This document shows, one piece after another, positions 9,900 through 13,559 of a stretch of 64,000 nt of DNA. The notes under the pieces are model-generated. The model had not been told where the DNA came from. It ran no database searches and was given only the letters and a program-made list of their open reading frames with translations. The DNA lies in contig JANRKO010000060.1 in NCBI GenBank assembly GCA_033763455.1, positions 1-64,000 on the forward strand, written 5' to 3'. Made by a program: the position numbers and the translations under genes. Origin of the DNA: Polyangiaceae bacterium (lineage in GTDB: Bacteria > Myxococcota_A > Polyangia > Polyangiales > Polyangiaceae). Position 1 is the first letter of the stretch. Each line of letters opens with the position of its first letter.

Positions 9900-12800
9900 A
9901 TGACTTTTCGCCTTTCATCTTGGTTCCGAAGCGCGGTGGCGTTGGTGGCGGCGTGTGCCGCGGCAATTGCCCTTGGAAATGGCTGCGGGAGTGATGGCGG
10001 GGGTGGCGCGGCGGCTGGCATGAGTGGCGGAGCTGGCGGGATGGCGGGTACGTCCAGCCTGGCGGGCAATGGTCCCGGCAATGTTGGTTCAACGGCGGCG
10101 TGTGTGCTCAGTGCGGATTGCGCTTCAGGTTATCACTGTGATCTGGGCGAGTGCTTGAAAAGCTGCGATGAAGGAATGCCTTGTGCCGTGGGGCTCACGT
10201 GCTCTGTGCGTGGCGAGTGCGTTTCTTCGGCAAATGCTGCGACGCCAAGCACTACCAGCGCCGGTACCTTTACGGTGGAGCCGCGCCGCGTTCCACTTAC
10301 CGAGCGAGATACTTCGTTTGACCTCACGCTCACGAGCGACAGTACCAAGGCCGTGAATTATCGAGTGGAGTTGGTGGGTGCGCATTTGGGGTTGAGTGAG
10401 CTCAGGGGAAGCTTTACGAAGACCAAGAAGCTCACGATCACGAGTAATCCGGCACAAGCACTGGCCCGCAAGAGCCCTGGCAGCGTTCGGATCTTTACGG
10501 ATCTTGGCAACGTTACGGTAGATGCACCGCTGCGGGTGGGGCTTACGGGCCGTTACCAAGGTGTCATGAGCTACAACGGCGGCCAGGTGTCGCTCGGTGA
10601 AGCCCGCTTTACGGCGGAGCTTCTAGCGCAGCAGGGCAACGTGAGTGCGCGCATTGATCCGAAGGAATCGCTGCTATTTCCCGCTATTTCTGGCCAACCA
10701 ACGTTTGGGGTCGGTTTCGAGTCAGGCGAAGAGCTCACGCTTACCTTTGATCAGAAGATCCCGAAGGAAGTGGGCGGAGATCGAAACCTGCTAGGGCGTG
10801 ACATCGGCCGACGCGTCAAGCTAGTGGTAAAGCCATTCGATCGCGATAGCCTCGCGGGCACGTTTGAAGAAACGCTTTTTGGTCTGTTCGTTTTGCCAGT
10901 GAAGGTAAACGGGACCGTCACGTTGCGTTATCGCGGTGACCAACCCGATCCGGTGTTCACACCTGGGCCCGCGATCACGCAGCCGACAGGTGCTGCAACG
11001 TGGCTCTCCGCCACTCAGGCCTTGGGAGCCAGCGGGGAATGCTCGGCGCTGCTTGCCGGTGTTTCGGTTTGCGGGGCAAACTGGCAGAACGGAAAGACGG
11101 CGTGTTTCGAGAGCGTTGCGAGTAGCTCCTACAAGTTGGACGTGGCGATGGCCAATCGAACGATGCCGGGGAAGGGGTTTGATGCGATTGTGAGCGATTG
11201 TGCGAGCGGTCTCGCTTCGTGCGCCAACGTTCCGAACCTCGCTTGCGCTGCTCAGGCAGCCGCGATGGTTTCCGTCGCGGATGCGGCTAATGCCGGCGTG
11301 TTCGGTCGCTTAGTGCGAAGATTTTCAGATCCGTCGTTACTTATCGCGAACGACATTATGGTGAAAGCACTTCGTGATTCCCTCTCGAAGGATAGCCTTA
11401 CGTCCGAATTGACGAGTTATGATGCTGCTGCCACCCGACTGAGCACCCCCATCCGCTGGCTCCTCCAATCCGGGATGCTCGATTATCTTGAACGCCTGGA
11501 CCCTGTGGCTGCCCAGGGTGACATGAAGAACGGCGAAGCCAGCTTCCCCGCAGCGCGAGCACTTTCCAAGCTTCTCCGCCTGCTTTCCGCAGTTGAAGGA
11601 GAGCGCGGCCGGCTCAACGCCTTGGCTAGTAGTGCGGATCCGAGCGGAGAGATCCAGAAGGCCCAAGAGCGCGGCCTCCAGAGCTACCTAGAGTCCATCG
11701 CGCTTTTGCATCTTCTGGAAACATGGAACGCTGCAGCTCCCGAAATTGCGACCCAAGCCGCAGGGCTGCTCACACCGCTCGACGGCGCATTCCGATCCCT
11801 TTCGCAGGGCGCTGCAACGTTCGGTATCCCCGAAGGGTTCGTGCCGTTTGTTTGGCAGCCGAATGATCTCACGAAGGGTGCCACGAACTTCGAGCAGATG
11901 GCGAAGGTGGCAGAAACAAGCCTTGCAGCCGTTACTCAGGCAGAAGCCAACTTTCTGGCAAACGCGCGCACTTTCGACCAAAACGAGCAGGAGCTACTGA
12001 CCGAGCTGCAGGCTGTGGCGGTAAGCTATGATACGCAGCTTAAAGATATCTGCGGTGCTACCTTCAACCCCGATGCGATCACCAAGGATTCTGATTGGGA
12101 GATGTGCGGGAGCGCTGGCACAGGCGAAATCGCGGTAGCGCAGGGGCAAGTGGTTCAAGCGCAGGGGCGCCTCAGCGCCTCGCTATCACGGGTCCAGGGA
12201 ATGCGGGATAAGCTTGCCATTGATGAAGACGCGTTGGCACAAAAACAGGGCGTTCGGAAGGATACTCTTCGGTTTATCGATAGCACAGGCAGCCAGCTCT
12301 CAACGCTCATCATGGCCGAGGGCGTGATCAATGCGATTCAGGTGGGGCTTGAGCTCTCATCGAACGCTAGCTTGCTCAACGGAGGCGCGTCGATCGGTAT
12401 GGGTGTGGCTTCTGCGATCTTAGAAACGCAGAAGACGGCTCTCAACGTGCAGCGCCAGAACCTTCAGACCGCCCAAACGATGCGATTTGAGCAACAAAAT
12501 GCCAAGCTCGAATTGATCGATGGCATGGCGAGCCTTCAACGCCAGCTGATTGATATCAATCAAGTGGCGCTTGAGATGGAGCAAGATAAGCTCTTAGTGC
12601 TGGAGAATGATTTGCGCGTCCGCAACTTGCTCGACCAGGCCAAGCTGGTGCTTAACAATCGAGCAGGCGCGAAGTGGTTAGCAGCAAATTCACCAGCTAA
12701 CGATCCTTCGTTCAGGTTGCTGCGGGATAAGCTTGCGATTTCAGTGCTCAACGCTCGTGCGAACGCACAGCGCATGTTGCTGCTCGTGGGGCGAGCCCTG

Positions 12801-13559
12801 GAGTACGAAGTGAATACGCCATTTGGCGCCATCGAAGGCGCGGTTATCAACGCCCGCAATGCCTCATCTTTGGGTGAGCTCGCTACGTGTTTTACGACGA
12901 TCCACAACGATTACGTGTTGGCCTATGGCAACCCTCAAGCCTATTCGACGAACATCTCCGTGCGCTCGCTTCTCGGCGTAGAGGGCCCGATTTTGGACCC
13001 AGCCACGGGGCAAATGTTGTCGCCCGGGCAGCAGTTCCGCGAGTTGGCCCTTCGCAATGAGAACCTCGATCCAGATGGCGGCCTCACGCTACAATTCTCC
13101 ACCAACCTGCAGCCTGGTAATCAGCTGTGGTCATCGGATGTATGTGGGGATCGCATCACGGATGTGCAGGCCCAGCTCGTGGGAGATTTTCTGGGTGACA
13201 ACCAAACTCAAGTGAACGTGAGCCTGGCCGGAAGCGCTGTGCTCCGCACGTGTGACACCGATGATCTTCGGAGTTGGTCGCTCGGTAAAGGTAAGGAAAT
13301 CGAAGGCGGAGCTTTAGCCATCGTCCAAGGTGGCGTGAACACCTTCGGGGACGCTCCACCGAATCAATCGCTCGCTGGGCAATCGGTGGCTCGTTCTACT
13401 TGGCGAGTGAGCATTCCGAGTAAAACCTCCGCTCCTTCCAACAGTGACGTCGACCTCACCAAGCTTGAAGACGTTGTGCTCAAGGTGCAGCACAAGGCGT
13501 TGCCCAAGCGCATGAGCCCTCTCAACGTAAATGTTTCTTGTTTGATGAGTATCCAGTGA
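9900..13559 (+). CDS. Large lipoprotein with Cys-rich and Ig-like N-domains and a C-terminal Tc-toxin A-subunit-like coiled coil and TcB-binding-like domain
   Basis: Lipobox GNGC, Cys-rich module, beta domains, long heptad region with an apolar hairpin, and C-terminal motifs RALEYE / NISVRSLL / RITDVQAQL / TWRVSIP / LEDVVLKVQH. CDS is certain; the Tc-like call is by-eye. Confidence 0.6.
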   Translation: MTFRLSSWFRSAVALVAACAAAIALGNGCGSDGGGGAAAGMSGGAGGMAGTSSLAGNGPGNVGSTAACVLSADCASGYHCDLGECLKSCDEGMPCAVGLTCSVRGECVSSANAATPSTTSAGTFTVEPRRVPLTERDTSFDLTLTSDSTKAVNYRVELVGAHLGLSELRGSFTKTKKLTITSNPAQALARKSPGSVRIFTDLGNVTVDAPLRVGLTGRYQGVMSYNGGQVSLGEARFTAELLAQQGNVSARIDPKESLLFPAISGQPTFGVGFESGEELTLTFDQKIPKEVGGDRNLLGRDIGRRVKLVVKPFDRDSLAGTFEETLFGLFVLPVKVNGTVTLRYRGDQPDPVFTPGPAITQPTGAATWLSATQALGASGECSALLAGVSVCGANWQNGKTACFESVASSSYKLDVAMANRTMPGKGFDAIVSDCASGLASCANVPNLACAAQAAAMVSVADAANAGVFGRLVRRFSDPSLLIANDIMVKALRDSLSKDSLTSELTSYDAAATRLSTPIRWLLQSGMLDYLERLDPVAAQGDMKNGEASFPAARALSKLLRLLSAVEGERGRLNALASSADPSGEIQKAQERGLQSYLESIALLHLLETWNAAAPEIATQAAGLLTPLDGAFRSLSQGAATFGIPEGFVPFVWQPNDLTKGATNFEQMAKVAETSLAAVTQAEANFLANARTFDQNEQELLTELQAVAVSYDTQLKDICGATFNPDAITKDSDWEMCGSAGTGEIAVAQGQVVQAQGRLSASLSRVQGMRDKLAIDEDALAQKQGVRKDTLRFIDSTGSQLSTLIMAEGVINAIQVGLELSSNASLLNGGASIGMGVASAILETQKTALNVQRQNLQTAQTMRFEQQNAKLELIDGMASLQRQLIDINQVALEMEQDKLLVLENDLRVRNLLDQAKLVLNNRAGAKWLAANSPANDPSFRLLRDKLAISVLNARANAQRMLLLVGRALEYEVNTPFGAIEGAVINARNASSLGELATCFTTIHNDYVLAYGNPQAYSTNISVRSLLGVEGPILDPATGQMLSPGQQFRELALRNENLDPDGGLTLQFSTNLQPGNQLWSSDVCGDRITDVQAQLVGDFLGDNQTQVNVSLAGSAVLRTCDTDDLRSWSLGKGKEIEGGALAIVQGGVNTFGDAPPNQSLAGQSVARSTWRVSIPSKTSAPSNSDVDLTKLEDVVLKVQHKALPKRMSPLNVNVSCLMSIQ

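Follow-up and report, generated by a model that had tools for sequence, protein, structure and literature searches.

Tc toxins have been studied as insecticides and as protein-injection machines. To our knowledge, every A subunit (TcA) that has been solved is a giant soluble protein of ~2,500 residues, without a signal peptide and with a puzzling release route, and we know of no signal peptide among classical TcAs in general. One study describes a lysis route for the release of classical Tc toxins that depends on the type 10 secretion system (T10SS) (PMC10847048). A survey of Tc loci mentions fusions of the B and C subunits (TcB-TcC, hereafter BC) and orphan TcCs (Song et al. 2021, PMC7861908), and Myxococcota or Pfam-negative A subunits were not mentioned in those of its passages that were searched (supplements not covered). 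In our full-text searches of the literature, which did not extend to subscription journals or supplementary files, no paper turned up that describes a miniature TcA or one that is a lipoprotein.

Here we analyzed a 64,000-nucleotide (nt) stretch of DNA from a Polyangiaceae bacterium (assembly GCA_033763455.1, contig JANRKO010000060.1, positions 1 to 64,000), which we call the window. One of its genes encodes a protein of 1219 amino acids (aa), P0002, that a first-pass annotation had described as a lipid-anchored, TcA-like device. We consider it probable that P0002 is a Sec-exported, lipid-anchored miniature homologue of TcA, the window copy being intact but having lost its BC partner, with a TcA-like mechanism of delivery that we infer.

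The C-terminal module and the domain plan of the protein

The gene is a forward-strand open reading frame (ORF) at 9900-13559 that starts with an ATG at 9900 and ends with a stop codon at 13557-13559, and AAGGAGG lies 8 nt 5' of the ATG in the window sequence. A start at 9795 is unlikely because the upstream gene ends at 9898; this longer frame, which overlaps the upstream gene and lacks a ribosome-binding site, was dismissed. The gene and its parts are as follows.

9900..13559 (stop included), forward strand: gene for the predicted miniature TcA-like lipoprotein (P0002, 1219 aa)
9900..9986, forward strand: predicted signal peptide and lipobox (residues 1-29, Cys29), read from the sequence; leader and Cys conserved in most full-length homologues
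9987..10094, forward strand: Gly/Ala-rich uncharged linker (residues 30-65); low model confidence (pLDDT <50) at model residues 2-33, uncharged run at 33-72
10101..10220, forward strand: Cys-rich knot with eight Cys at residues 68-107; Cys columns nearly invariant
10269..10523, forward strand: BACON-like Ig beta-sandwich (residues 124-208; model strands E95-179)
10548..10931, forward strand: second beta-sandwich domain (residues 217-344; model strands E188-315)
11010..12125, forward strand: alpha-helical domain (residues 371-742), seen in both models and part of the ~750 columns that Foldseek aligns to TcA
12126..12359, forward strand: predicted channel helix 1 (residues 743-820, 78 residues; model helix H274-351)
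12360..12404, forward strand: apolar Gly/Ala/Ser-rich tip loop (residues 821-835; pLDDT <50 at model residues 337-373)
12405..12686, forward strand: predicted channel helix 2 (residues 836-929, 94 residues; model helix H367-460; hhalign hit 1 at residues ~879-975)
12705..13556, forward strand: TcB-binding-like C-terminal domain (residues 936-1219), helices and then a beta-rich part; Foldseek and hhalign hits 1 and 2

AlphaFold2 was run on two overlapping halves of the protein, each with a family alignment. The C-terminal model (residues 470-1219) had a predicted local distance difference test score (pLDDT) of 86.5 and a predicted template-modelling score (pTM) of 0.72. When this model was compared with the PDB by Foldseek, 23 matches were found at E <= 1e-3, and all 22 of those listed were TcA chains, namely TcdA1 (prepore and pore), XptA1/2, YenTcA, TcdA4 and TcaA-TcaB, with E-values from 7.6e-14 for the best match, TcdA1, to 5.9e-5. 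The alignments spanned 712-837 columns in 21 of these 22 matches; the other, 6l7i_A, is a 179-residue part of TcdA1 and aligned over 220. The best non-Tc match had an E-value of 3e-3 and a probability of 0.14. Within the helical domain lie six conserved Cys (residues 381-449) and the invariant G-x-P-x-G-F-V-P-F / TNFEQ (642-667). The model further places two long channel-type helices around an apolar tip, as in TcA, and the tip is predicted to enter a membrane. The charged fraction of residues 823-841 is 0.05 across the family (97 sequences), the lowest in the protein, so that the first-pass description of two long helices flanking an apolar hairpin fits helices of 78 and 94 residues on either side of a low-confidence, least-charged loop.

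For a comparison of profiles, a Tc locus on a Burkholderia plasmid was taken as the classical reference, and 120 classical TcA-family proteins (1,924-4,260 aa) were collected. The C-terminal 670 columns of the family were aligned by hhalign with the last 900 residues of 60 classical TcAs. The first hit joined family residues ~879-975 to a TcA segment running into PF18276 (TcA_TcB_BD), with a score of 48.6 and an E-value of 1.1e-4, and paired RALEYE with RAFNFE. The second (E 0.0066) paired W-x-L-x-IP...DLD...DDIVL...H with WRIELP...FD...DVVLHLNYT. The controls stayed below the 48.6 of the true alignment, at 19.6 for a reversed template and no more than 21.3 for any of 15 column shuffles. Both hits map onto the PF18276 region of the Burkholderia TcA, their spacing is 284 residues in one family and 286 in the other, and a loose setting of hhalign gave a collinear alignment across 543 columns; against one classical TcA sequence, the match covered 39 columns only (E 0.022). 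An ESM-Atlas language-model search for look-alikes of residues 640-1219 returned PF18276 clusters as 20 of its 30 named matches.

From the fold match, the profile-profile alignments and the ESM-Atlas result together, we take it as established that the channel and cocoon-docking module is homologous to that of TcA. The C-terminal 750 residues have the TcA architecture, that is, a helical domain, a long-helix hairpin with an uncharged loop and a beta-rich domain of the TcB-binding type. A TcA-like C-terminus had been proposed at first sight from short motifs. The collinearity with classical TcA, which takes in RALEYE and the W-x-x-x-IP...DIVL motifs, and the TcA identity of all fold matches listed bear this out, and every motif cited at that stage was found where it had been placed:

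11823-11849, forward strand: GIPEGFVPF
11883-11900, forward strand: TNFEQM
12321-12422, forward strand: Gly/Ala-rich apolar stretch
12792-12809, forward strand: RALEYE
12951-12974, forward strand: NISVRSLL
13152-13178, forward strand: RITDVQAQL
13368-13388, forward strand: SLAGQSV
13398-13418, forward strand: TWRVSIP
13464-13493, forward strand: LEDVVLKVQH

The N-terminal half differs from TcA, with an anchor, a linker, a Cys knot and two Ig-like sandwiches in place of the TcA shell. Its model (residues 30-520, pLDDT 89.9) begins with a disordered linker and a small Cys knot, continues with two beta-sandwiches and runs into the first part of the helical domain. The Cys-rich and Ig-like domains suspected in the first-pass annotation correspond to the eight Cys at residues 68-107 and to the two beta-sandwiches with their BACON-like matches. 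For the first sandwich, the family profile (97 diverse members) matched the 6nps GH115 domain at E 2.7e-9, Foldseek matched 6nps_A at E 6.9e-8, and PF19190 (BACON_2) was found among the 25 relatives scanned with Pfam; for the second, Foldseek returned multidomain Bacteroides DUF1735 proteins and PapD-like Ig folds. Weak DUF7107 matches occurred in relatives, and that of P0206, with 26.8 bits, exceeded the gathering score. The shell and the neuraminidase-like and receptor-binding domains that mark the ~2,500-aa class were not found, whether by size, by Pfam or by the N-terminal fold. A search for longer proteins homologous to the C-terminal part came back empty, which by the search's own account is weak evidence.

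Most full-length homologues start with a basic and hydrophobic signal peptide whose final Cys precedes a Gly or Ser. This conservation of the leader supports the prediction that the window protein is a lipoprotein, as the first-pass annotation had called its ~1220-aa ORF. Four homologues (P0013, P0017, P0057 and P0060) have a Lys at the +2 position after the lipobox Cys, where most others have Gly or Ser. In Myxococcus xanthus, a Lys at +2 is said to keep lipoproteins in the inner membrane, and localisation may vary within the family if that rule applies.

Partner genes in relatives and a proposed mechanism

The search for relatives yielded 435 clusters (50% identity) at E <= 1e-3. Full-length members among the best 150 were ~1,100-1,400 aa, and the others were shorter, partial sequences. 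Among 90% clusters there were 64 relatives of nearly the same length, and those with a name were hypothetical proteins of Polyangiaceae metagenome-assembled genomes (MAGs). A scan of one genome per species gave 47 A-like loci, with two or three copies in several genomes. These loci came from MAGs labelled Polyangiales, Polyangiaceae, Myxococcales, Myxococcota or Deltaproteobacteria, plus one each labelled Bradymonadia, Pseudomonadota and Proteobacteria. This is a family of ~1,200-aa proteins across Polyangiales and other Myxococcota that is unannotated in the libraries searched. Classical giant TcAs are also present in Sorangium and Haliangium; the miniature form is therefore a lineage of its own rather than the form that TcA takes in myxobacteria.

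A gene order recurs among the relatives, in which a ~570-aa Gly-rich lipoprotein is followed by the A-like gene and by a gene of ~2,000-2,200 aa. The last carries SpvB, FG-GAP beta-propeller, TcdB_toxin_midN and RHS domains, and some copies add PT-HINT, an LHH nuclease or TNT. Its domains identify this downstream gene as a TcB-TcC fusion with a polymorphic toxin tail. Eleven of the 15 BC N-termini shown had a signal-peptide-like start before the conserved ISLPKGPGSIEGLG at the start of the SpvB region. The tails diverge beyond an RHS-type NPYAYAN...DP-x-G motif and carry hydrophobic Gly/Ala stretches ahead of the toxin domains.

By tblastn, BC lay downstream of A on the same strand in 28 of the 44 loci with at least 500 nt of flank, the four closest relatives of the window gene included, and in 22 of 33 when at least 3 kb was required. 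The remaining 11 of these 33 comprise four with BC upstream and seven without any in the flanks examined. The A stop and the BC start often overlap. The first-pass annotation had envisaged a Tc-like device without TcB/TcC and with a different cargo or none, a view that these neighbourhoods do not support and that does not hold for the family. Genomes with orphan A copies also carry complete loci, as for L015, which shares one MAG with L017 and L040.

Some loci depart from this plan. In L004, a second RHS protein (10106-12838, 910 aa), which has a TNT (tuberculosis necrotizing toxin) domain at its C-terminus, is encoded after BC and resembles an orphan TcC-like cassette. The BC genes of L026 (13736-18336) and L047 (13793-18498) are split into several ORFs, possibly through frameshifts, as pseudogenes or by long-read assembly errors. 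In L001 (contig JBBRRP010000003.1), a 305-aa ORF at 20123-21040 follows a second BC gene, and the locus ends soon after; its stretch 20195-20557 has 72% nt identity with the final ~120 codons of the A-like gene (window 13167-13531), and the ORF may represent a third, partial A copy or a scar left by recombination. An apparent protein family of long Ala/Gly/Arg/Val-rich ORFs (for example L005 2040-5879 and L006 6644-10546, both on the reverse strand) was rejected as false, these ORFs being antisense to BC in GC-rich DNA.

The gene upstream of the A-like gene in the window encodes the Gly-rich lipoprotein of this gene order:

8192..9898, forward strand: accessory Gly-rich lipoprotein gene, open from GTG 8156; likely start ATG 8192

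From ATG 8192 its translation reads MKIKV...MAIAC|SS. The accessory gene ends at 9898, 2 nt before the A-like start, and the two genes are therefore translationally coupled. Related loci have its homologues immediately 5' of the A-like gene or else between A and BC. A D-x-PDD-x-F-x-D-x-NCDGIDGD motif is conserved among them, and the window protein has long Gly-rich repeats as well. Neither Pfam nor NCBIfam gave a match passing threshold for the accessory lipoprotein; Atlas and PDB offered leads only, to a MopE-type metal-binding motif and to DUF1565 / right-handed beta-helix proteins.

By analogy with the classical toxins, A would be exported and would then oligomerise into a channel, a pentamer if it follows TcA. 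The cocoon, with the BC beta-propeller, would dock on the C-terminal domains of A, the autoproteolytically released toxin tail would thread through the helical channel, and the uncharged, apolar channel tip would enter the target membrane. The Ig-like domains may bind a surface ligand. The membrane pierced could be that of a neighbour, by contact-dependent delivery from a surface complex, or the producer's own outer membrane, reached from the periplasm in the manner of a secretion conduit. The nuclease and NADase tails that follow hydrophobic Gly/Ala stretches suggest bacterial or other microbial targets and a second entry step. We put forward more tentatively a distinct route by which predatory myxobacteria would deliver RHS-caged polymorphic toxins, and which has some chance of being right in all its parts. 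It is that of a Sec/Lol-routed, lipid-anchored mini-injectosome, composed of an A pentamer, the beta-helix lipoprotein and the BC cocoon with its signal peptide, that would be assembled extracytoplasmically and would inject neighbours on contact or pierce the producer's own outer membrane as a secretion pore. Orphan A copies, each with its own kind of Ig-like targeting domain, would be reserve platforms on which BC cocoons from other loci could dock.

The best of the competing explanations, although on balance an unlikely one, makes the protein an outward secretion conduit, in which A on the periplasmic face inserts its channel in the producer's outer membrane and exports BC toxin docked from the periplasm. 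A and BC both have Sec-type signals and so would meet in the periplasm, and a few homologues have the +2 Lys described above. According to the sources cited, it is lysis that frees classical Tc toxins, which lack a signal peptide (PMC10847048), and Zhang et al. 2012 (PMC3482391) grouped proteins that combine a signal peptide with SpvB, a beta-propeller and RHS under the name "TcdB/TcaC export pathway". However, the N-terminal Ig/BACON-like domains resemble modules that bind ligands, for which there would be little need in the periplasm, and the BC tails, with hydrophobic Gly/Ala stretches of their own and nuclease domains, must still get into a target cell.

The window copy and the weighing of alternatives

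The first-pass annotation was right that the window holds no TcB or TcC. Over the 64 kb, tblastn with BC proteins found nothing at E <= 1e-3 or at E <= 1e-10, and none of the 41 window ORFs scanned had an SpvB or RHS Pfam domain. The closest relatives of the window gene (L001, L002, L003 and L004; 66-73% identity) all have a BC gene whose start is no more than ~50 nt from the A stop. A quick IQ-TREE tree places the window copy inside the 100%-supported clade of these four, where it is the sole member without BC. In a blastn comparison with L003, similarity ends at the end of the A gene and resumes at window 13684-13745 and 14301-14998 (L003 22744-23504). Because the flank similarity resumes ~9 kb later in L003, ~9 kb holding BC and five small ORFs are missing from the window, and because all four closest relatives carry BC, the window copy most likely lost its partner locally. 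The region beyond the A gene is made up as follows.

13560..14344, no strand: region where the closest relatives hold BC and small ORFs (~9 kb); here a mazEF-like pair (blastn to L003 and L001)
13596-13940, reverse strand: MazF/PemK toxin gene (Pfam PemK_toxin, E 2.2e-25)
13934-14206, reverse strand: RHH antitoxin gene (Pfam RHH_1, E 0.001)
14345-15012, forward strand: FitA-like antitoxin and PIN toxin pair (83% nt identity in L001 and L003)

Both pairs are toxin-antitoxin modules of type II. In L001 and L003 the FitA/PIN pair sits beyond the block of BC and small ORFs. A 138-aa ORF at 13618-14034 on the forward strand was dismissed in favour of the MazF-like gene on the reverse strand.

The window gene itself is well preserved. 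Its 1219 codons contain no stop or frameshift, and it keeps the consensus residue at 208 of the 226 columns that are at least 90% conserved in close relatives and at 43 of 45 such columns in diverse ones, the two misses of the latter set being trimming artefacts. Relative to L003, the proportion of nonsynonymous differences (pN) was 0.20 and that of synonymous differences (pS) 0.75, a saturated value. Either the gene has a working BC partner at another place in the genome, or it is an idle orphan. Action in trans is plausible because genomes with orphan copies also hold complete loci. A well-preserved orphan copy shows that A and BC genes are gained and lost separately.

That the gene is a recently orphaned one without remaining function, left behind by a deletion of BC and an immunity region, seems improbable. 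It would account for the absence here of the ~9 kb that separate A from the fitAB-like module in L003, with a mazEF-like module in their place, and for the position of the window copy as the only one in its clade without BC. Yet the reading frame and the conserved columns have been kept, as just described, and the accessory gene upstream, translationally coupled, is also open. A recent relaxation of selection is not measurable because synonymous sites are saturated (pS 0.75).

We give slightly less credence to a stand-alone pore-former, a lipid-anchored, membrane-puncturing toxin without TcB/TcC whose cargo would be unrelated or none. The lack of a BC gene in the window, the seven of 33 loci that have none in the flanks examined despite at least 3 kb of downstream flank, and the intact window ORF would all suit it. 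Against it, the TcB-binding-type C-terminal domain is the best-conserved part of the protein, window copy included, BC is adjacent in most loci and often overlaps the A stop, and the genomes with orphan A copies hold complete loci too (L015 with L017 and L040).

We return to the reading of P0002 as a lipid-anchored miniature TcA with a lost BC partner. Several results weigh against it. The window protein had no match in Pfam (E <= 10) or NCBIfam (E <= 1), and in particular none to Pfam VRP1, neuraminidase-like, ABC_toxin_N or TcA_TcB_BD. Thus the C-terminal likeness to TcA expected by the first-pass annotation was recovered by Foldseek, with TcdA1 at the top, and not by the Pfam TcA_TcB_BD model. 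Among 25 relatives, PF18276 was seen in one, at the extreme C-terminus of P0117, with an E-value of 0.1 and 12.1 bits against a cut-off of 25; for comparison, the classical Burkholderia TcA matches it at E 3.5e-99 over residues 2952-3257. Searches of PDB sequences by phmmer with the protein and by hmmsearch with a profile of close homologues gave no Tc match. The best Tc match in the sequence and profile searches of the PDB was not significant (E 0.22); with the 97-member family profile, the channel regions of XptA2 (E 0.22) and TcdA1 (E 3.6) were both sub-threshold. The Foldseek matches to TcA had query TM-scores (TMq) of 0.14-0.30 and root-mean-square deviations of 8-47 A, so that the fold match is one of topology and local geometry rather than of rigid superposition; low TM-scores are expected because a monomer model of an elongated protein was compared with chains in assembled pre-pore and pore states. 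No TcA chain was among the 50 fold matches listed for the N-terminal model. The lipobox of the window protein, LGNGC (Cys29) with VAAC (Cys19) as an alternative, is atypical, and for this reason the lipoprotein call rests on the conservation of the leader across homologues. The window has no BC gene, and all relatives come from MAGs, the family being known from sequence alone.

A generic coiled-coil surface adhesin or lipoprotein whose likeness to TcA is convergent would agree with the empty Pfam, NCBIfam and PDB sequence searches, with the low TM-scores and with the tendency of long helices to draw spurious matches, but it is hardly credible given that TcA chains account for all 22 of the fold matches listed at E <= 1e-3, that the profile match takes in the beta-rich C-terminal domain, collinear and above reversed and shuffled controls, and that the genetic linkage to TcB-TcC fusions is independent evidence.

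The rest of the window holds further genes. A likely defence island at 612-6701 on the forward strand contains an MmeI-family type IIL restriction-modification enzyme (937 aa, five MmeI Pfam domains), a DEAD/ResIII helicase (685 aa) and a T5orf172/MUG113 protein. On the reverse strand, 6877-8073 encodes a 398-aa secreted protein without a Pfam match. Members of its cluster family recur within 10 kb of A-like genes in L008, L029, L035 and L047, and the L008 member has an OMP_b-brl domain (E 1.8e-11); the recurrence may point to an outer-membrane partner or be coincidental. Three pairs of DUF1592/DUF1588/DUF1595 (PSD) and DUF1552 (HXXSHH) genes lie at 20077-23261 (forward strand), 37696-41233 (reverse strand) and 41398-44704 (reverse strand), and the same pair is found downstream of the A-like gene in L046 (10127-13704). 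A cluster at 15048-20063 on the reverse strand comprises DUF4956, a VTC domain protein, a 186-aa ORF and a 1004-aa CotH kinase-like protein.

Comparison with known systems

If the reading is correct, a channel and docking lipoprotein of 1,200 residues would define a minimal translocation core, and a minimal TcA would show which parts of the 2,500-aa classical subunit are dispensable. It would also provide a Sec-dependent way to get a Tc-type machine out of the cell, and would extend Tc-like delivery to bacterial antagonism or predation in soil myxobacteria. Tc surveys built on domain models such as those of Pfam and NCBIfam would miss the family because these models do not detect it.

The protein departs from classical TcA in its lack of the Pfam signatures, of the shell and of the neuraminidase-like and receptor-binding domains, in its size, in its signal peptide and, for this copy, in the missing linkage to BC. 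With the Tc toxin A subunits (TcdA1 of Photorhabdus, XptA1/XptA2 of Xenorhabdus, YenA1/A2 of Yersinia entomophaga and TcaA-TcaB) it has the C-terminal channel and docking module in common. The miniature family is likewise linked to TcB/TcC-type genes, although the window copy has no such link. Whereas the PDB chains are ~2,500 aa and the classical family spans 1,924-4,260 aa, the protein here has 1219 aa; it has a predicted lipoprotein signal peptide, and its partner in relatives is a single BC fusion that is probably Sec-exported.

Among polymorphic toxins, the TcdB/TcaC type (Zhang et al. 2012, PMC3482391) corresponds to the BC genes of the relatives, which by their domains have exactly the architecture described there, including variable tails (LHH nuclease, TNT) and PT-HINT. 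That description concerns the BC-type protein, and in the passages searched it mentions neither "TcdA" nor an A-like lipoprotein partner. The gene for a SpvB, beta-propeller and RHS protein that characterises such loci is present in relatives and absent from the window.

Two systems of myxobacteria also bear comparison. The Myxococcota teneurin-like proteins, which in concept come closest among what the literature searches brought up, as far as passages of their description go (PMC13018210), are similar to this family as YD/RHS-shell toxin carriers with a predicted signal peptidase II (SPII) lipoprotein route and polymorphic C-terminal toxins. In that system the cocoon itself is the lipoprotein and those passages describe no A-like channel partner, whereas here the channel subunit would be the lipoprotein and the cocoon would have an ordinary signal peptide. 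The SitA toxins of Myxococcus, which are transferred by outer membrane exchange, are likewise lipid-anchored components of myxobacterial antagonism (PMC8546572); SitA proteins are the toxins themselves and are not Tc-like, and the likeness to the A-like protein is one of description only. Set beside these systems, our verdict is that the family represents a Sec-exported, lipid-anchored mini-Tc system whose C-terminal module is shared with TcA by descent.

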